A stretch of DNA of 45,032 nucleotides from Candidatus Jordarchaeia archaeon (GCA_029856435.1 JAHQXB010000066.1:1-45032), one strand, 5' to 3'; positions 4,468 through 44,867 are shown, counted from the stretch's first letter. Program-made: numbers and translations. The notes: a model not told the origin generated them from the sequence alone.

Positions 4468-5010
4468 ATGGTTAAATATTTTGATGATGTGAAGAAGGAA
4501 GGTGTGTTGAGTGTTGCTTTCCAAATGATGATAAGTGCGAAAACTGCACCCAAGGGTTTGGGTCAGGATTCGGTTATTATAGCGCTTGTTTCTGATGAGG
4601 AGAAGAAAAAAATAGCGGAACAAATGCATCAACTGGCTGAAGTTGCGGGGGAAAATTTTCATAGAGACGCTATGGGAGTGGAGCAGGCTATAACGGTTCT
4701 ACTTTTGGGAATTAAAAATACGGATACTCCCCAAGTTAATTGTGGTGCCTGTGGTTTTCTCACTTGTGAGGAATTTTTGAAGCATGAAAAAAGCGGTGTC
4801 CCTTTTCCGGGGCCCTTTTGTTGTCTTAAACTTGTTGACCTAGGTATAGCAATTGGTTCAGCTGTAAAAACAGCGGCTCTGATAAGTGTAGATAACCGGG
4901 TAATGTACCGTATTGGAGTTGCGGCAAAACTCCTGAATCTGATTGACGCCGACTACATTCTCGGTATTCCCTTATCCGCTTCTTCAAAGAACATCTTTTT
5001 TGACCGCTAA
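4468..5010 (+). CDS. DUF2148-type ferredoxin-domain/nitroreductase-like protein
   Basis: SAKTAPKG, NCGACGFLTC...GPFC, VDLGIAIGSAVKTA, VDNRVMYRIG, GIPLSASSKNIFFDR. Confidence 0.85.
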   Translation: MVKYFDDVKKEGVLSVAFQMMISAKTAPKGLGQDSVIIALVSDEEKKKIAEQMHQLAEVAGENFHRDAMGVEQAITVLLLGIKNTDTPQVNCGACGFLTCEEFLKHEKSGVPFPGPFCCLKLVDLGIAIGSAVKTAALISVDNRVMYRIGVAAKLLNLIDADYILGIPLSASSKNIFFDR

Positions 5011-5089
5011 TCATTTATTGGTCATAAGCTGGTGGAACACTGTTTTCAAAGTGGTGTTCCATTTACTTCATAAAATTTAAATATTCAGA

Positions 5090-6265
5090 ATGATGAGTTT
5101 GCCGAGGGTTGCAGTGTTCAAGAAAGAGTTATCCGAAAAAGAAAGGACAGCTGTACTGGCACTTGAAGACGGCTCCTATTTTATAGGCACCGGTTTTGGC
5201 GCCACAGGTAAGGTTTGCGGCGAAGTGGTGTTCAATACTGGAATGGTAGGATACCCTGAAGCACTCACCGACCCCTCTTACGAGGGCCAAATTCTAGTTC
5301 TAACCTACCCTTTAATAGGTAATTACGGAGTTCCTTCTCGGACTGTTTTTGACCGTTGGATGATTCCCAGCTTTTTTGAATCTGATAGTATTAAGGTGGA
5401 GGGGCTAGTAGTTCACGAGTATTGTAGTACACCACACCATTGGCAGTCTCAACAGACTCTTGGTCAATGGCTTGAAGATGAGGGTATACCAGGTGTACAG
5501 AAAATAGATACCCGAATGTTAACAAAAAAGCTTCGGGAACACGGTGTAATGTTAGGCATCTTAGAAGTTTTTAAAGAAAATGTGGAACCCGACTTGGATA
5601 GGCTAATTAATGAGGCCAAGAGAGTACCTGACCCCAATGATTTGGATCTTGTATCTAAAGTTACATGTAAGGAGCCAATAATTTACAATAATTTGGGACG
5701 AAAAAAAGTTATTGTCATAGATTGTGGAGTAAAATATAACATCATACGTGAACTCCTACACCGCGGAGTGGATGTGGTGAGGGTCCCATATAACTTCTCC
5801 GCAGAAGAAATTATGGATTATAAACCCTCTGGAATATTAGTTACTAACGGTCCTGGGGATCCTAAGAAGGTTCAAAACACAATCGCCACTGTCAGCACTC
5901 TAATAGAATACAATATTCCTGTGATGGGCATATGTTTCGGTAATCAAATAGTTTCCCTAGCCTGTGGCGGCGACACGTACAAGTTAAAATACGGGCATCG
6001 TTCTCAGAACCAGCCTTGCGTCGATGTGAGTACTGGTAGGTGTTACATCACCACACAGAATCACGGCTACGCGGTTAGTTTGGAGTCACTCAAAAACACT
6101 GAGCTGGAAGTATGGTTCCTCAACGTAAATGATAAAACCGTTGAGGGTGTCAGACACAAAAAGCGTAGCGTTTTCTCTGTTCAGTTCCATCCAGAGCATT
6201 CAGCGGGGCCATTAGACTCAGAATATCTTTTCGATGTCTTCTTAAACATGTTGGAGAGTGCATAA
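5090..6265 (+). CDS. carA: Carbamoyl-phosphate synthase small subunit
   Basis: GEVVFNTGMVGYPEALTDPSY, NGPGDP, catalytic GICFG, SVQFHPEH. Confidence 0.97.
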   Translation: MMSLPRVAVFKKELSEKERTAVLALEDGSYFIGTGFGATGKVCGEVVFNTGMVGYPEALTDPSYEGQILVLTYPLIGNYGVPSRTVFDRWMIPSFFESDSIKVEGLVVHEYCSTPHHWQSQQTLGQWLEDEGIPGVQKIDTRMLTKKLREHGVMLGILEVFKENVEPDLDRLINEAKRVPDPNDLDLVSKVTCKEPIIYNNLGRKKVIVIDCGVKYNIIRELLHRGVDVVRVPYNFSAEEIMDYKPSGILVTNGPGDPKKVQNTIATVSTLIEYNIPVMGICFGNQIVSLACGGDTYKLKYGHRSQNQPCVDVSTGRCYITTQNHGYAVSLESLKNTELEVWFLNVNDKTVEGVRHKKRSVFSVQFHPEHSAGPLDSEYLFDVFLNMLESA

Positions 6266-19852: not shown

Positions 19853-20494
19853 TTGCATTGGGAAGAACAAAAAAAGAAGTATGCAAAACTGGCTTGTGAG
19901 TTCATTAAACAGGCGGAAGCTTTGAAATTCGGTGAATTTACGTTAACCTCTGGAAAAAAATCCCCATTTTACATTGATATGCGACTTTTCATATCGTATC
20001 CCGATATTTTCAATAAACTGTGCGACATCTATGTAGAAGTAATTAAGAACGAGATTTTAGAAGTAGACTGCATCGCGGGAATACCAACAGCAGGGCTACC
20101 TATAGCTACCCTTATTAGTTACAAAATGCGTTTACCATTAATCTATGTAAGAAAAGAGCCCAAAGCACATGGGAAAGCCAAGATGATCGAAGGCCTGCTT
20201 ACTCCTAACGATAGTGTGGTGTTGGTAGATGATCTAGTTACCTCTGGAAGCAGCTTACTAAACGCTGCAAGGACAATTCGGGAAAGCGGAGGGATAATAA
20301 ATCATGCAGTAGTATTGCTAGACAGAGAACAGGGGGGCAGAGAAAACTTACAAAGGGAGAAAATCGAACTACACACAGTAATCTCAATGAGCCAACTACT
20401 AGACATGTTTCGAGATTTAGGATACATAACCCATTCAAATTACAATTTGGCAAAAGAGTATCTCAAAAGAGAAAAAAATTCACAGTTCAACTAA
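19853..20494 (+). CDS. pyrE: Orotate phosphoribosyltransferase
   Basis: FGEFTLTSGKKSPFYID, RKEPKAHG, PRPP motif VVLVDDLVTSG. Confidence 0.95.
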   Translation: MHWEEQKKKYAKLACEFIKQAEALKFGEFTLTSGKKSPFYIDMRLFISYPDIFNKLCDIYVEVIKNEILEVDCIAGIPTAGLPIATLISYKMRLPLIYVRKEPKAHGKAKMIEGLLTPNDSVVLVDDLVTSGSSLLNAARTIRESGGIINHAVVLLDREQGGRENLQREKIELHTVISMSQLLDMFRDLGYITHSNYNLAKEYLKREKNSQFN

Positions 20495-20569
20495 ATATTT
20501 TTTTAAAAACCAACTTTCCTCTCGTCTTCAAAAAATTTTTAGCAAATATACATTAAGCTGCACTTATCG

Positions 20570-20790
20570 TAAAAGAATTAATTTTTCATACCTAACCCAT
20601 ATCTCCCTTGTGTGTTTTAGATAAACATCTATATGCTTGCGCGTCACAGACAATATAAAAATTAGTTTTTCGTAGCAACACTCAATTGCTGGCAACGTTT
20701 CAGAAAGTATGAAAAATTTTTATGGTGATAGAAGAGTGTTATAGACTTTCCATTTAATTTTTTCCTTTTCGCTTCCAGAAAGTATGGTTT
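20570..20790 (-). repeat. Degenerate tandem 50-60-bp repeat family, copy 1
   Basis: Reverse complement contains acgaaaaact..ttttatattgtct..gcgcaagc and ttttcatactttctg, matching 41588-41690 and 35147-35283. Confidence 0.6.
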
Positions 20791-21107
20791 TTTCCGCCTT
20801 TTTTGGGAAAAGAAGCCTTAAATAACCCCGGTCAAGGATAGGTTCAGGAAAAAATTAATGAGAAACTCTATATTGTGTTATTTTTATTGCTTTTTGATTT
20901 TTTTATTAAAAAATGGTTATACAAAGCATGAAAAAGTTCTTATACATTCACGAGAACTAAAATTAATAGATGACAAGAGTGTACCTCTGAGATTAACTCC
21001 TTTGGGAAAGCAAGCCGTAAAAAACCGAAAATATCATTAAAGTGTTTAAACATATAAAATTAACAATGAACAGATTATCGTAACAAACTTTTTATAGGTG
21101 TTAAACT

Positions 21108-22184
21108 ATGCCTTTCGGAATAATTGTAGTAAAGTGGGATAACCGTTTAGGAGCAGTTCTAGAAGCAAAATATCCTGAACATATTAGGACTACAGATGAC
21201 CAAATAATGAAAATATATACGGCTCACGCCATGGGTGAAGCTGCCGCAGGATTTATGTCGATGAGGCTGGGTAATCTCAATGTCGCTTCGTATTATAGTG
21301 GCTTTGATATCAATTATTATGTTGCGTTACTTTTGACGCTGGAAGAGAATGCGGAAGACTATGAGGATGGTTTGGCTGAGGTTGCTGCTAAAATTTTCTC
21401 AAAGATTGAGAATGAAGAGTACAAGGCTGAATTAGAAGACTTATATAATAAGCTCACCAGATTTCCAACTTTAAATGAGGAGCAAAAGATGGCTGTGATT
21501 CTTTCAGACCCGGTTAGGTTGAACATTATTGAGCGGTTGATTGAGGAAGGTAATACGACTCTGGCAGATTTGGAAACTTGGTTGAAACATAAGTTGGAAG
21601 TTAAGGCAATCGACATTTACTCGTACTTGTCACCCCTTATCAAGAATGGCCTTGTTACTACTCAGTGGGTTGAAGGACTCCCAAGTCAGTGTGTCTTTCT
21701 AATTAGGGATGTTTTTATAGCAAGGGTTCCTGCTAGAGTTATTGTGAAGAAGGCAAAATCGGGTGAGATGAGTCCAGAGGTAGCTTCGGAATATCTAGAT
21801 GAGGTTAAGAACTTCTTTAGAGACTACGTTATTTCACCTGAGGATACAGAGCTAATAACCAAAATTCTTTCAGATCCAGATGCTTACGATGTCTTAGTTG
21901 CCCTAAGAGAGAATATTCTCCCTAAGGGTGAAATTCACAGGATACTTGACAAAAAGAAGTCAGTAGTAGACAGTATTCTCAGCGCCTTTGATAAGGCTGG
22001 CTTCACTATGGATCTAAAAATTAATAAGAAAACATATTCCGCACTAAAAACTGATGTTAAAATAATGACATTCTTCCCAGAGTATCTTGTTGAGCAGATA
22101 GGCCAACAATATAATGACCAAATCAAACCCCCAAGGATGCTATTGTGGCATTTGAAGGCGCTTAGAGATAGTTATCCTATGTAG
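21108..22184 (+). CDS. Asgard-type protein: N-terminal longin/uDENN-like domain plus winged-helix region
   Basis: N-terminus MPFGIIVVKWDNRLGAVLEAKYP (beta-hairpin start of uDENN/longin folds); SDPVRLNIIERL...LADLETWL...LSPLIKNGLV resembles an ArsR-like wHTH. Fold calls are from recall. Confidence 0.7.
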   Translation: MPFGIIVVKWDNRLGAVLEAKYPEHIRTTDDQIMKIYTAHAMGEAAAGFMSMRLGNLNVASYYSGFDINYYVALLLTLEENAEDYEDGLAEVAAKIFSKIENEEYKAELEDLYNKLTRFPTLNEEQKMAVILSDPVRLNIIERLIEEGNTTLADLETWLKHKLEVKAIDIYSYLSPLIKNGLVTTQWVEGLPSQCVFLIRDVFIARVPARVIVKKAKSGEMSPEVASEYLDEVKNFFRDYVISPEDTELITKILSDPDAYDVLVALRENILPKGEIHRILDKKKSVVDSILSAFDKAGFTMDLKINKKTYSALKTDVKIMTFFPEYLVEQIGQQYNDQIKPPRMLLWHLKALRDSYPM

Positions 22185-22196
22185 AGGATAAACAAT

Positions 22197-23039
22197 ATGA
22201 TCAGAGAAGTGTCTATTCTAGATTCCAATGGTAAAACCCTTTTCAGTAAAAGGTATGGTCAAAGTAGCGTGTCAGCTGAGGATTTCAGTGATTTTGTAAG
22301 TCATCTAGCTCTCCTTGTGCCCAAACTCCAACTTAATGGAGACATAGAATTTATGAATCTGAAGCGAACAAGGCTGTATTACTCTAATTCAGACAGCATA
22401 GTGTTTACTTTAGAGGCTGACAAGCGTGACGCAATCACGGAAATAAAACAAAAGCTACAGACATTGAAAAATACTTTCTTAAAAAATTTCCAAAACGATT
22501 TGAACGAGTGGAAGGAAGAAAACTCTGCGAAACTTGAGCCTTTAGTTGACGAAATAACTATGACTTACCTTAAGATATCACTTATAGGTTATAGCGGTGT
22601 AGGAAAAACAACTATCTTAAAACTTCTAAGAGAAGAAGAGCTACCCAAAGAGCACATTCCCACAATCGGCGTAGGAATAAAGGGTGTTAAAGGCGCAAAA
22701 ATTGGAAACACCTCATTAATATGTTGGGATCTTGCGGGGCAGGAGCGATTTGAATTAACTTGGGACAAATTCATTCGTGATTCTTCTCTGATCATTATTG
22801 TCACCGATTCCACTCTGGAGAATGTAGTTAAATCCAGATACTTCGTTCGCTTGATTAAAGACGTTGAACCGGAGGCTAATGTTTTCTGTATTTCCAATAA
22901 GCAAGATTTACCTAATGCTCTTCCTCCCGAGAAGGTGGAGCAAATTATGGAAATTGATACTCACGGCCTTGTAGCCATTGACCCTATGAATCGTGTCAAA
23001 CTTTATGAATTAATTAGAAAATATGTTATGGGTATGTAA
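22197..23039 (+). CDS. Longin-like domain fused to an Arf/Rab-like small GTPase
   Basis: N-terminus MIREVSILDSNGKTLFSKRYG (longin/sigma-adaptin-like); G1 GYSGVGKT, G2 IPTIG, G3 WDLAGQ, G4 NKQD. Confidence 0.88.
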   Translation: MIREVSILDSNGKTLFSKRYGQSSVSAEDFSDFVSHLALLVPKLQLNGDIEFMNLKRTRLYYSNSDSIVFTLEADKRDAITEIKQKLQTLKNTFLKNFQNDLNEWKEENSAKLEPLVDEITMTYLKISLIGYSGVGKTTILKLLREEELPKEHIPTIGVGIKGVKGAKIGNTSLICWDLAGQERFELTWDKFIRDSSLIIIVTDSTLENVVKSRYFVRLIKDVEPEANVFCISNKQDLPNALPPEKVEQIMEIDTHGLVAIDPMNRVKLYELIRKYVMGM

Positions 23040-23060
23040 AATAACTGGAGGTTGTATGGA

Positions 23061-23384
23061 ATGAGTATAGTTGAGAAAGTAAAATCTTTTTTCAGAACCC
23101 TCATAGGTGGTGCGCCGAGTATCCAACCAGTGAAAGTTACATCCAAAGAAATGAAGGAGATAAACATACTGAAAACTGAAATCGACCAGTTGAAGAGTGA
23201 GAAGGATAAGATACAGGAGGAACTACAACGAATCGACCTAGAATTCCTAATGGGAAAAATTTCTGAAGAAGATCGAGAGAAAAACTATGTCCGGTTAATG
23301 GTTAAAGCAATGGATTTGAATCGAAAAATAACGAGCAAGAAGCAAAGAATTTTTGCTCTCGGCGGCGTTATCTCTGAAATCTAA
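23061..23384 (+). CDS. Small coiled-coil protein with N-terminal amphipathic helix
   Basis: GGAGGT SD 8 nt before ATG 23061; MSIVEKVKSFFRTLIGG followed by heptad helices; third gene of the operon. Confidence 0.8.
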   Translation: MSIVEKVKSFFRTLIGGAPSIQPVKVTSKEMKEINILKTEIDQLKSEKDKIQEELQRIDLEFLMGKISEEDREKNYVRLMVKAMDLNRKITSKKQRIFALGGVISEI

Positions 23385-23956
23385 TCCTCCCCTCATTTTT
23401 AAGAACCACGCCACATGAAACTAGGGCAAACACTTTGAAGGCGGCTCAGTCTGTATCTCTCAATTCCAAAATAAATGACAAAATTAATTTCGAATTGTGA
23501 TGAACCTTTTTTCTAAGATACGGAGCTTATGTATATTTGAACAAGGTTAAATAGCTTTAGTTCCGCTCCGATTTTTCTAAAAACAAAAACTAATTTTCCC
23601 GACTAAAAAGGAGGAATCTGGGAAAAAATAAATGAGTGTAGAACAAATTTGTCCTCCTAAAGTTACTTTTTTAGAAAAATTTAAAATTTGAGAATTTTTT
23701 CTTTTAATAAAGAATGAATCCGGTTTTTAGCGAAACTTCTCTTAAGGGTCTGTTTAATATTCTTCTTTTCACGCTACTAATTCTGCCCGCCACTTATTGG
23801 AAGTTCTTTTCTATCCCCCTTTGTGACTGAAAATAGGTATTACTAAAAAGGCGCCCCACTATATGATATTAAAACTCTGAATAACTTTAATTGGTTTCTA
23901 ATATCTGTAATCTTAATTCTCATAAAAATCCTATTAATTAATTGAAGGTGCTATGA

Positions 23957-25207
23957 TTGAAGGAAATTCTTCTAAGCTACGGAACTAAGAAGATAGTTGC
24001 GGAAATACCGGAAAAAAATTACTTTGGTACGCTAGAGGTAAGTGAACCGAATGGGGTTAAGGATCCAGAAGCACATATATTGCAATGTTTAAGGGCGCCA
24101 ATAAACTGTCAACCGCTTAAAAGTATGGCGAATCCCGGAGCTCGTGTTGCAATAGTTGTCAGCGACCATACCAGACCAGTTCCGACCAGAGTTATGCTTC
24201 CCCCAATTCTAAGCGAGTTAAAAAATGCAGGTGTCACTAAAGATAAAATACATATTGTTTTCGGATGTGGTACACACAGAAAGGTAAAGGAAGAAGAGGC
24301 AAAAACTATTTTGGGGGAGGAAATAGCCGAAGAAATAGAGTGGTCAAGTCATGACTGCGAGGCTGAAGACTTGGTATATTTGGGTACGACATCTCGTGGA
24401 ACCAAGGTTGCAATAAATCCAGTAGTAGCTAAATCTGATTTAAAGATATTGACTGGAGACATAAGCTATCACTTTTTTGCGGGATATGGTGGAGGCAGAA
24501 AAAGCATTCTTCCCGCAGTAGCGTCCAAAGAAGCTATCAATAAAAACCATAGTATGCTTACAAATCCTAAGTCGGAAATTGGGGTTTTGGAGGGAAATCC
24601 TGTTCACGAGGACATGGTTGAGGGCGCCAGACTCGCCAATCCTAACATTATAGTTAATGTGGTTCAGAACACAAGAAAAGAAGTGATAAAGGCATTCTGT
24701 GGAGAGCTAGAATCCGCCTTTTATGAAGGAGTAAAATTTCTGGACAAAATATACAGGGTTAAAAGTGAGAGGGCAGATATTGTCATAGTAAGTGCTGGGG
24801 GCTATCCCAAGGACATAGACTTATACCAAGCCTATAAGGCAATTCATAACTCTCTACCTATAGTTAATAACAATGGCGCCATAGTATTGGTAGCTGAGTG
24901 CAGGGAAGGTGTGGGAAATAAAGTGTTCCAAGAATGGATGAAAAAGTATGCCACAGCAGAACAAATGAGAGAACAACTCGAGAAAAACTTCGTGATAGGG
25001 GCGCATAAAGCCTACTACCTTGCCAGAGCCCTTCAAAAAACAAAAATTTACATGATTACTGAAATACCTCCAAATGAATTGGAAAAAATTTACAAAATCA
25101 TTCCAGTAAAATCAGTAGAAGAAGCCCTCGAAGAAATATTCAATACCATGAAAAAAGAAGCCAAAATTAAGGTCATACCCTACGGCTCTTCTATTCTGGC
25201 ATGCTAA
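23957..25207 (+). CDS. larA: Nickel-pincer-dependent lactate racemase family protein
   Basis: DHTRP, GTHR, HFFAGYGGGRKSILP, GGYPKDIDLYQ, GAHKA. Substrate within the LarA superfamily is not determinable. Confidence 0.9.
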   Translation: MKEILLSYGTKKIVAEIPEKNYFGTLEVSEPNGVKDPEAHILQCLRAPINCQPLKSMANPGARVAIVVSDHTRPVPTRVMLPPILSELKNAGVTKDKIHIVFGCGTHRKVKEEEAKTILGEEIAEEIEWSSHDCEAEDLVYLGTTSRGTKVAINPVVAKSDLKILTGDISYHFFAGYGGGRKSILPAVASKEAINKNHSMLTNPKSEIGVLEGNPVHEDMVEGARLANPNIIVNVVQNTRKEVIKAFCGELESAFYEGVKFLDKIYRVKSERADIVIVSAGGYPKDIDLYQAYKAIHNSLPIVNNNGAIVLVAECREGVGNKVFQEWMKKYATAEQMREQLEKNFVIGAHKAYYLARALQKTKIYMITEIPPNELEKIYKIIPVKSVEEALEEIFNTMKKEAKIKVIPYGSSILAC

Positions 25208-44207: not shown

Positions 44208-44867
44208 ATGAGGGTGGTAGTACATCCCTCCGCATTGTCAAAAATCATTGATTTTACAGGAATAGACCTAAGAAAAGAATCCGCTGGATTCCTTATAGGA
44301 AAAATTGTTGGAGATAAACTGGTAATAACAGATAGCACCATGACAAAACATGCAAGCACAGCAGCATACGTTGTTGTTGACGATACAGAAATGGCCGAAG
44401 TAGCAGAAGAATTAGACGCGAGGGGAGAAGGCGAAACGATAATCGGATGGTGGCATAGTCACCCCGGAATGGGGGCAGGATTCATGTCCGCAACAGACCT
44501 AGCCACCCAACAAAAGTATCAGAAAATGTTTCCCCAAGCACTAGCCCTCGTAATAGACCCCACTAAATTTTTAAAAACCGGAAAAATTGAAGATTTAGAT
44601 TACAAACTATACACAATAAACTCCAAAGGTTACAAACCAGTAGAAACAGAAATTGCACAAAACAGCGACGAAATCCTGATAACAACCTTCAAATCCATAA
44701 AAAACCTAAGAAAAGACCTTCAAAGAATAATCCAAAAAAGCGAGAAAAACATAACTGCAGAAACTACTCAAAAAATCAGAAACACCACAGAAGCCCACAT
44801 AATAATACTAACCCTCTGGACAATAACACTAGTAATAACACTCACCCTAATTTACCTAAGCCTATAA
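44208..44867 (+). CDS. JAB1/MPN+ (JAMM) metalloisopeptidase with C-terminal coiled coil and TM anchor
   Basis: KESAGFLIG (catalytic Glu), GWWHSHPGMGAGFMSATD (HxH...S..D), ALVIDP; terminal IIILTLWTITLVITLTLIYLSL. Confidence 0.9.
   Translation: MRVVVHPSALSKIIDFTGIDLRKESAGFLIGKIVGDKLVITDSTMTKHASTAAYVVVDDTEMAEVAEELDARGEGETIIGWWHSHPGMGAGFMSATDLATQQKYQKMFPQALALVIDPTKFLKTGKIEDLDYKLYTINSKGYKPVETEIAQNSDEILITTFKSIKNLRKDLQRIIQKSEKNITAETTQKIRNTTEAHIIILTLWTITLVITLTLIYLSL

Follow-up and report, generated by a model that had tools for sequence, protein, structure and literature searches.

A stretch of 45,032 nucleotides from Candidatus Jordarchaeia archaeon (GCA_029856435.1 JAHQXB010000066.1:1-45032), referred to here at its full length as the window, carries three co-oriented genes between positions 21,108 and 23,384 which, with a probability of roughly 0.55, constitute one operon for an Asgard-specific cytoplasmic module centred on a small guanosine triphosphatase (GTPase), working by the mechanism outlined below. 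Gene 1 is predicted to code for a longin domain followed by two winged helix-turn-helix (wHTH) domains, gene 2 for a longin fused to an Arf-like GTPase, and gene 3 for a small basic protein with an N-terminal amphipathic helix. In the proposed mechanism, the longins of genes 1 and 2 would pair into a heterodimeric platform comparable to those of NPRL2-NPRL3, FLCN-FNIP, C9orf72-SMCR8 and Mon1-Ccz1. This platform would sit against the fused G domain and set or read its guanosine tri- or diphosphate (GTP/GDP) state, and gene 3 would keep the assembly at the membrane via its N-terminal helix. Gene 1 would also dock on a juxtamembrane motif of giant type-I surface proteins, whereby the module may couple the cytoplasmic tail of the surface protein to the GTPase switch. 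The window is contig C55 of an Asgard genome (genus Freyarchaeum) of 3.54 Mb in 181 contigs, and its proteins share 96-97% identity with entries under 'Candidatus Freyarchaeota' and 79-89% with those under 'Ca. Freyarchaeum deiterrae'. The genes and their predicted domains are the following.

21108-22184, + strand: gene 1, a 358-residue NPRL2/NPRL3-like protein with a longin and two wHTH domains (open reading frame, AlphaFold2 model, Foldseek and VIA-align)
21108-21473, + strand: longin of gene 1, residues 1-122 (order of strands and helices, matches to solved longins)
21477-21731, + strand: first wHTH of gene 1, residues 124-208 (secondary structure of the AlphaFold2 model; NCBIfam HTH_metalloreg, E 1.8e-5; net charge -3)
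21828-22073, + strand: second wHTH of gene 1, residues 241-322 (Pfam TrmB, E 3.4e-4; ArsR-type structures at Z 8.5-9.4; net charge 0)
22197-23039, + strand: gene 2, a 280-residue longin fused to an Arf-like small GTPase (open reading frame, AlphaFold2 model, Pfam Arf)
22197-22556, + strand: longin of gene 2, residues 1-120, of adaptor sigma or Fuzzy-Mon1 type (profile match, Pfam, topology of the AlphaFold2 model)
22563-23036, + strand: G domain of gene 2, residues 123-280, with motifs G1-G5 and catalytic Gln182 (alignment, Foldseek)
23061-23384, + strand: gene 3, a 107-residue basic protein, isoelectric point (pI) 9.4, with an N-terminal amphipathic helix and then a helical or coiled-coil region (open reading frame, GGAGGT 8 nt upstream)
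23061-23114, + strand: N-terminal amphipathic helix of gene 3, residues 1-18 (hydrophobic moment about 0.5, mean hydrophobicity 0.2)

The open reading frames lie on the + strand at 21108-22184 (358 residues, ATG), 22197-23039 (280 residues, ATG) and 23052-23384 (TTG). For gene 3, the in-frame ATG at 23061 (107 residues) is the likelier start compared to the TTG at 23052, since GGAGGT (23047-23052) stands 8 nt upstream of it and the homologues begin at the equivalent Met. The gaps thus come to 12 nt (22185-22196) and 21 nt (23040-23060), in agreement with the compact, co-oriented arrangement described in an initial annotation of this DNA, made from its sequence alone. A Shine-Dalgarno-like GAGGA overlaps the stop of gene 1, 9 nt ahead of the ATG of gene 2, and the trio is flanked by non-coding DNA of 613 bp on one side and 572 bp on the other. 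All three proteins have conserved homologues, and the genes are thus real rather than chance reading frames.

The structural model of gene 1 (AlphaFold2, 25-sequence alignment) has a predicted local distance difference test score (pLDDT) of 91.8 and a predicted template modelling score of 0.83. By this model, the N-terminal domain has a longin fold: residues 1-122 follow the topology beta-beta-alpha-beta-beta-beta-alpha-alpha around a five-stranded antiparallel sheet, with strands assigned by DSSP to residues 4-11, 15-22, 48-54, 57-63 and 70-76 and helices to 30-43, 82-98 and 105-121, at a pLDDT of 88-94 with one block at 78. Solved longins superpose on it at Z 9.5-11.3 over 105-125 residues, with a root-mean-square deviation of about 3 Å. 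Among them are a Loki longin (8yqg_B, Z 11.3, 122 residues, 3.7 Å), VAMP7 (4afi_B, Z 10.8), FNIP2/FLCN (6ulg_N and 6nzd_H, Z 10) and Lst4 (4zy8_C, Z 10); the adaptor sigma and mu chains and Mon1-Ccz1 fall within Z 9-11, DENND1A at 9.5 and DENND10 at 8.5. The residues of gene 1 that are invariant across 25 homologues cluster in this domain (P2, G4, D11, G15, P23, H40, S61, Y62, G65 and E86).

As a whole, gene 1 is modelled as a longin with two winged helices behind it and shares this architecture with NPRL2 and NPRL3, subunits of the eukaryotic GATOR1; published descriptions of NPRL2/3 give an N-terminal longin and two or more winged helix-turn-helix repeats (PMC3747258). A Foldseek search of the PDB returned NPRL-size chains of GATOR1 and SEA complexes in the first seven places (9o5a_C, 9o5d_C, 7t3b_C, 8adl_S, 8fw5_C, 9h4q_T and 9v0j_B), with E-values of 1.2e-4 to 2e-3 and low TM-scores, the latter due to differing orientations of the domains. 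VIA-align, an all-against-representatives comparison independent of Foldseek, placed 8fw5_B first (Z 12.6, 177 residues, residues 1-303 of the model) and 8adl_S third (Z 11.0). Judged by chain lengths of 362-370 and 400-461 residues, the matched GATOR1 chains are NPRL2 and NPRL3. The initial annotation had anticipated longins at the N-termini of both genes 1 and 2 and a wHTH in gene 1, all of which the models and profiles now reproduce, with two winged helices in place of one. Its assignment of gene 1 to the uDENN type fares less well, and the protein is better read as NPRL2/NPRL3-like: the DENN superfamily continues with core and downstream DENN parts, whereas in gene 1 the longin is followed by the two winged helices.

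Gene 2 was modelled at a pLDDT of 85.9, and its N-terminal domain shows the same beta-beta-alpha-beta-beta-beta-alpha-alpha topology. Here the sequence also speaks for a longin, of the adaptor-sigma/Fuzzy type: among PDB sequences, a profile of the domain matches AP-2 sigma (E 2.1e-7, residues 1-102), AP-3 sigma (3e-4) and also delta-COP, and within the family Clat_adaptor_s is found in 11 of 24 members and Fuz_longin_1 in 5 of 24 (best E 4.3e-9), the copy in the window lying below the Pfam cut-off (16.4 vs 22.5 bits). The C-terminal domain is, by its sequence, an Arf-family small GTPase in which every nucleotide-binding motif is retained, along with the catalytic Gln. It scores 77.9 bits against Pfam Arf (cut-off 22.3), above Roc, Ras and Gtr1_RagA (29.9 bits). 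In a 32-sequence alignment, G1 (G131-x4-G136-K137-T138), G2 (T156), G3 (D178-x2-G181-Q182), G4 (N234-K235-Q236-D237) and G5 (A260-I261) are all invariant or nearly so, which extends by G5 the set of intact motifs first noted, and the invariant positions are K126, G131, G136-K137-T138, T156, G181-Q182, W189, N234-D237 and A260, with a W-D-x-x-G-Q switch II. For the G domain, the Asgard ArfR proteins HodArfR1 (8ouk) and GerdArfR1 (8oum) lead the Foldseek matches (E 1.4e-11), by a very small margin over Arl8b, Arf1, Rab6 and Ran. The N-terminal amphipathic helix typical of Arf proteins, which enters the membrane upon GTP binding, is absent from the gene 2 model, where the 120-residue longin fills the N-terminus. 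Thor, Loki, Odin, Hel and further Asgard groups all have homologues of gene 2. The window's own genome codes for two more longin-Arf-like paralogues on contig C107 (3626-4537 and 7523-8623, both on the - strand; E 1e-91 and 3e-88), 3 kb apart and with no gene-1-like neighbour.

Gene 3 belongs to a family of 37 representative clusters among 1.84 billion proteins, mostly of 100-190 residues, the closest Atlas cluster being from Thorarchaeota. Most representatives keep the start M-G-[ILF]-x-x-[KR]-[IL]-K-x-x-[FW]. Composition and family alignment both point to a conserved N-terminal amphipathic helix and a helical or coiled-coil region; an amphipathic coiled-coil protein had been proposed at the outset. 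No Pfam family passes its cut-off; matches to TBK1_CCD1, GvpG and others were rejected as far under their cut-offs and as products of coiled-coil composition. The eukaryotic N-myristoylation consensus, which goes with lipidated N-terminal anchors of Arf or LAMTOR1 type and has a small residue at position 6, is not followed by the family, in which that position is K, R or F.

The physical pairing of the two longins, a central claim of the initial annotation, is favoured by their recurrent linkage, and structure prediction adds weak support. Full-length genes 1 and 2, co-folded with GTP and Mg, scored 0.48 compared to 0.01 for the best of three controls, with 100% agreement of contacts between runs and a partner pLDDT of 86. 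The mark applied to such scores is reached by 58 of 80 solved complexes and by 2 of 110 mismatched pairs; at scores of 0.60 or below, only 7 of the 80 solved complexes reach it, along with both of the mismatched pairs that passed. The comparative evidence includes a second, divergently transcribed pair in the same genome, on contig C2, consisting of a 210-residue protein with a gene-2-type longin (4577-5206, - strand; E 1e-8) and a 133-residue, longin-only protein of gene-1 type (5602-6000, + strand; E 2e-19). In 'Ca. Harpocratesius', a stand-alone longin adjoins gene 1 and is assigned to the gene-2 type with an hhalign probability of 88% and a Pfam Fuz_longin_1 score of 28.9 bits, above the cut-off. 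The pairing of gene-1-type and gene-2-type longins thus recurs independently of the G domain, and this recurrence is the strongest comparative argument for a physical partnership. A gene-1-type longin is also present in a 475-residue protein on contig C142 (1103-2527). The possibility that the two longins are paralogues of each other was rejected, the profile-profile probability being 0.2%.

The linkage of the genes extends well beyond the window's genome, a point on which the initial annotation had made its reading depend. The survey covered a single genome from each family, with flanks of 1.5 kb, and at least 8 of about 24 Asgard families have genes 1 and 2 side by side. The arrangements of the trio and its parts are the following.

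Window's taxonomic order: all 10 loci with gene 1, gene 2, gene 3
'Ca. Atabeyarchaeum deiterrae' (G002): 1604-residue protein, gene 1 (its start overlapping the stop of that protein), gene 2, gene 3, 239-residue wHTH protein
Baldrarchaeia (G005), G006 and G310: gene 1 and gene 2 adjacent
Helarchaeota-type G100: gene 2, then a long gene 1
Thor-type G312: divergent gene 1 paralogue beside gene 2
G001 and G297-299: gene 1, then gene 3, with no GTPase between
'Ca. Harpocratesius' (Lokiarchaeia): giant FG-GAP protein, gene 1, 135-residue stand-alone gene-2-type longin

Several of these loci carry further variations. The Helarchaeota-type homologues of gene 1 (P0152-P0155), which sit downstream rather than upstream of the longin-GTPase, bear a helical C-terminal extension of about 220 residues (360-583) with TPR-like and MIT-like matches; its reading as a fused gene 3 was rejected (BLASTP E 2.7). 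A 139-residue reading frame after gene 1 in Odin was likewise rejected as a gene-2-type longin (hhalign probability 0.3%, no Pfam match). In the Thor-type genome, the gene after the longin-GTPase (L082:5359-6075, - strand) codes for a 239-residue protein with a winged helix like those of Ribosomal_S25 and DDRGK (E 1e-12 and 2e-5), and in Atabeyarchaeum a 238-residue wHTH protein (L080:15399-16112, + strand) follows gene 3. Such additional winged-helix partners may be part of the module in some lineages.

A further constituent of the system may be recognized from the neighbours of gene 1. In genomes of Loki, Thor, Odin and Atabey type, gene 1 directly adjoins genes for proteins of 1350-2600 residues, often with a stop-start overlap. 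These giant neighbours have a signal peptide, an assortment of domains (DUF2341, LamG/pentaxin, PA14, FG-GAP, Ig-like and macroglobulin-like) and one transmembrane helix close to the C-terminus, beyond which some 90-270 residues form a cytoplasmic tail, and share the motif [RK]-I-P-x-x-[IV]-K-[KQD]-[IV] right after the transmembrane helix. The window's genome also codes for a type-I surface protein of about 1396 residues (contig C87:26-4213, - strand), with a transmembrane helix followed by the motif RIPAIIKRIDEL, in a gene which ends at the contig edge. The initial annotation had viewed the module as self-contained, a view that no longer holds, given that gene 1 is translationally coupled to the giant proteins in other Asgard lineages and that all four genes stand in one operon in Atabeyarchaeum. 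The trio of the window is thus probably the soluble portion of a system to which, in other lineages, the surface protein also belongs.

A more far-reaching proposal can be built on this linkage, and it is offered tentatively, as a possibility that falls well short of an even chance. The operon would then be the soluble core of a receptor-coupled switch, running from the motif of the giant surface protein to gene 1 and on to the GTPase with its sigma-adaptin-like longin, with gene 3 on the membrane, and serving outside-to-inside signalling or sorting. Such a switch would be ancestral in logic, and perhaps by descent, to the longin-heterodimer regulators of Rag and Arf GTPases and to the link between Arf and adaptors in eukaryotic coats.

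A number of observations weigh against the operonic GTPase module as described. Gene 1 resembles NPRL2/3 in structure and architecture, a likeness that is undetectable by sequence: its longin matched none of the Pfam families for longin, NPR2, NPR3, Folliculin or uDENN at E <=5 (N-terminal domains of 16 members), and NPR2 and NPR3 were absent among the best 25 of 70 families for the full-length protein (25 members, E <=1). Against PDB sequences, the profile of the longin gave no match, and that of the full-length protein returned only wHTH regulators and helical artefacts, which were set aside. The wHTH pair itself resembles the DNA-binding ArsR/TrmB proteins in both sequence and fold. The two longins show no similarity to each other in the profile-profile comparison, and their co-fold yielded weak support only and no interface. 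No conserved Arg is found in the beta4-beta5 and beta5-alpha2 loops of either longin (25 sequences of gene 1, 32 of gene 2), and a GAP (GTPase-activating protein) mechanism of the GATOR1 type is thus unsupported. Gene 3 of the window starts with MS, compared to the MG of its family, and the surface-protein gene of the window's genome is unlinked to the trio. In most loci of Loki and Thor type, the full-length gene 1 is not beside a longin-GTPase, so that the GTPase is no obligate neighbour. Finally, the gene 1 family, present in 310 of 400 Asgard genomes and 68 of 85 genera, is nearly absent from the families Heimdallarchaeaceae (so named; 1 of 31 genomes) and 'Hodarchaeota' (so named; 1 of 22), the few copies being on short contigs. 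This near-absence weakens the notion, put forward with the initial annotation, of a prokaryotic precursor of eukaryotic switches, and, together with the lack of sequence likeness to NPRL2/3, it tempers the significance of the finding.

The main rival explanation takes gene 1 to be a transcription factor, in which the ArsR/TrmB-like winged helices bind DNA and the longin senses the GTPase or a ligand, and which regulates the operon and, elsewhere, the adjacent giant surface-protein gene. The C-terminal half indeed draws matches, from sub-threshold to significant, in the ArsR, TrmB and MarR families, in the window to HTH_metalloreg (E 1.8e-5) and in the homologues down to E 3e-9 for TrmB and 1.2e-7 for HTH_20. 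The tandem wHTH (residues 120-321) superposes on bacterial two-wHTH ArsR/SmtB proteins with a TM-score of 0.55-0.65, normalised by the match, and CodY, which combines a sensor domain with a wHTH, is among the Foldseek matches. Yet the copy in the window stays under every curated cut-off (24.5 vs 55 and 20.8 vs 25.6), the protein is acidic (pI 5.1), with net charges of -3 and 0 on its winged helices, and its best whole-protein matches are NPRL2/3, in which the winged helices are protein scaffolds. The stop-start overlap with genes for type-I membrane proteins also fits a stoichiometric partner better than a regulator. On balance, a transcription factor is an unlikely alternative, if the best placed of them.

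Somewhat less probable still is a strict GAP of the GATOR1 or C9orf72-SMCR8 type, whereby the longin heterodimer would insert a catalytic arginine or lysine into the fused G domain. In GATOR1, the NPRL2/NPRL3 longin heterodimer (yeast Npr2/Npr3) acts with DEPDC5 as the GAP for RagA/Gtr1, and Arg78 of NPRL2 is the catalytic arginine finger. The NPRL-like architecture of gene 1 is in line with such a role, and so is its beta1-beta2 hairpin, W-D-N-R-L-G-A, in which D11 and G15 never vary across the 25 homologues and a basic residue (R or K) is conserved at position 13 of the same loop. The spacing W10-D11-x3-G15 equals that of C9orf72, in which W33-D34 and G38-P39 are essential and lie beside the catalytic pocket of the C9orf72-SMCR8 complex, reported as an Arf GAP (PMC12290439); gene 2 is Arf-like. 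However, the Pro of the GP motif is absent, position 16 of gene 1 being A, T, V or M, no conserved Arg is found in the remaining top loops of the two longins, and most longin platforms are exchange factors (guanine nucleotide exchange factors, GEFs) or scaffolds. In its W-D-x3-G hairpin, gene 1 is closer to C9orf72, a non-catalytic partner, than to the subunits that carry out catalysis. With no evident arginine finger and this C9orf72-like hairpin, a non-catalytic or GEF/adaptor role for gene 1 would be at least as likely as that of a GAP.

A targeting role modelled on the signal recognition particle (SRP) receptor, in which gene 2 mimics SRX-SRbeta and, together with gene 1, delivers or inserts the giant surface proteins, is improbable to a degree beyond either of these. 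SRbeta is an Arf-like GTPase, the longin of gene 1 matches the SRX domains of SRalpha (6frk_y, Z 9.3; 5ck3_A, Z 9.0), and gene 1 is indeed linked in the genomes to giant secreted type-I proteins. These matches, however, are no better than those to dozens of other longins, the operon has no NG domain of the SRP54/FtsY type, and the motif of the giant proteins is cytoplasmic and follows the transmembrane helix, which suggests binding of the mature protein rather than of a signal sequence. That the three genes are mere neighbours without a shared function can be virtually dismissed, despite the loss of adjacency in many lineages, in view of the 12- and 21-nt gaps, the order kept across distant classes, the recurrence of the longin pairing in paralogues and a co-fold score far over its controls.

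The GTPase module as proposed has counterparts among known systems, each differing from it in specific respects. GATOR1 NPRL2/NPRL3 share with gene 1 the succession of a longin and tandem winged helices, are its best structural matches over the whole protein, and have a second longin protein as partner, as is proposed for gene 1; the proposed client of gene 1 is the small GTPase encoded next door. Unlike GATOR1, however, gene 1 has no sequence-family match and no evident arginine finger, the operon contains no DEPDC5-like gene, and the partner longin forms one chain with the GTPase, which is Arf-like and without the C-terminal roadblock of the Rag type. C9orf72-SMCR8 (CSW) and FLCN-FNIP are also longin heterodimers acting on Arf or Rag GTPases, and the former shares the hairpin spacing with gene 1, yet gene 1 has neither their C-terminal DENN part nor the Pro of the GP motif. 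Asgard longins with a GP motif are annotated as FLCN/SMCR8-type and have been reported in Heimdallarchaeia in particular (PMC12290439), whereas the Heimdallarchaeaceae genomes sampled contain almost no member of the gene 1 family. In the SRX domain of SRalpha with SRbeta and in MglB with MglA, an Arf-like or Ras-like GTPase is likewise held by a longin or roadblock platform, and both are among the structural matches of gene 1, but they are separate chains without a wHTH, have other biological roles and score no better than other longins.

Within the Asgard archaea, fusions of longins to Arf-like or Rag-like GTPases are on record from Lokiarchaeia. Klinger et al. 2016 (as cited in PMC4917890) reported five with Arf-like GTPases in Lokiarchaeum, and longin-GTPase forms were reported in MK-D1 (Tran et al. 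2024, PMC10933270), in which operons that combine a GTPase gene with a longin or roadblock gene are generally lacking (PMC10933270). Gene 2 has the same architecture and its homologues belong to the same family, yet no operon partner is given in those papers, the former as cited, compared to the adjacent, conserved partner gene here. NPRL2-like longin proteins and a conserved GTPase-regulator operon were described in Asgard archaea by Liu et al. 2021 (bioRxiv 10.1101/2020.10.19.343400); the NPRL2-like family is described there for most Thor and a few Loki genomes, and the operon combines a stand-alone roadblock gene with those of a Rab-like GTPase and a DENN protein, a composition that differs from that of the trio. 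In the open text of the literature, subscription papers and figures aside, no account was found of a linkage between an NPRL-like protein, a longin-GTPase, gene 3 and the surface protein. The parts are thus published, as longin-Arf-like fusions and NPRL2-like Asgard proteins, and the linkage appears new, no description of it having been found.

The surroundings of the trio contain candidate signals for its expression, all on the + strand.

21052-21059, + strand: TATA-like box ATATAAAA, some 50 nt ahead of gene 1, candidate operon promoter read from the sequence
21096-21100, + strand: AGGTG, Shine-Dalgarno-like element upstream of gene 1
23396-23400, + strand: run of five T, 12 nt past the stop of gene 3, candidate archaeal terminator read from the sequence

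As a promoter, ATATAAAA is plausible, in a region which is AT-rich; another TATA-like run, TTTTTATA at 21089-21096, was rejected as too near the ATG, ATATAAAA fitting better. The T5 run is plausible as a terminator signal, and an Rfam scan of 20300-24100 gave no match. Upstream of the trio, a 213-residue gene (19853-20494, + strand) contains the phosphoribosyl pyrophosphate-binding motif VVLVDDLVTSG and is thus a phosphoribosyltransferase; a gene of 213-222 residues occupies the same place in a sister family (f2), which shows that the neighbourhood is conserved within the order. Further away, 21 kb from the trio, a 219-residue reading frame (44208-44867) had been labelled a JAMM protein in the initial annotation. 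In an Odin-type genome (G300), the gene immediately preceding the gene 1 homologue codes for a JAB/MPN protease (L034:8446-9105; Pfam JAB, E 5e-16), and its connection with the putative JAMM frame of the window may be due to chance.

Asgard genomes code for dozens of small GTPases and for longin and roadblock proteins, rarely in operons, and the matching of regulators to GTPases has thus been guesswork (PMC10933270). The operon described here supplies a matched set of candidate partners, in which an NPRL2/3-like protein and a putative membrane anchor accompany a longin-fused Arf-like GTPase, and to which relatives of the window's organism add a candidate upstream partner, the giant surface protein with its conserved cytoplasmic motif. 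The type of regulator (GAP, GEF or scaffold), the attachment of the switch and its binding to the membrane thereby become addressable with recombinant proteins. In the same way, the trio makes directly addressable the question of whether the control of Arf- and Rag-type GTPases by longin heterodimers predated the eukaryotes.

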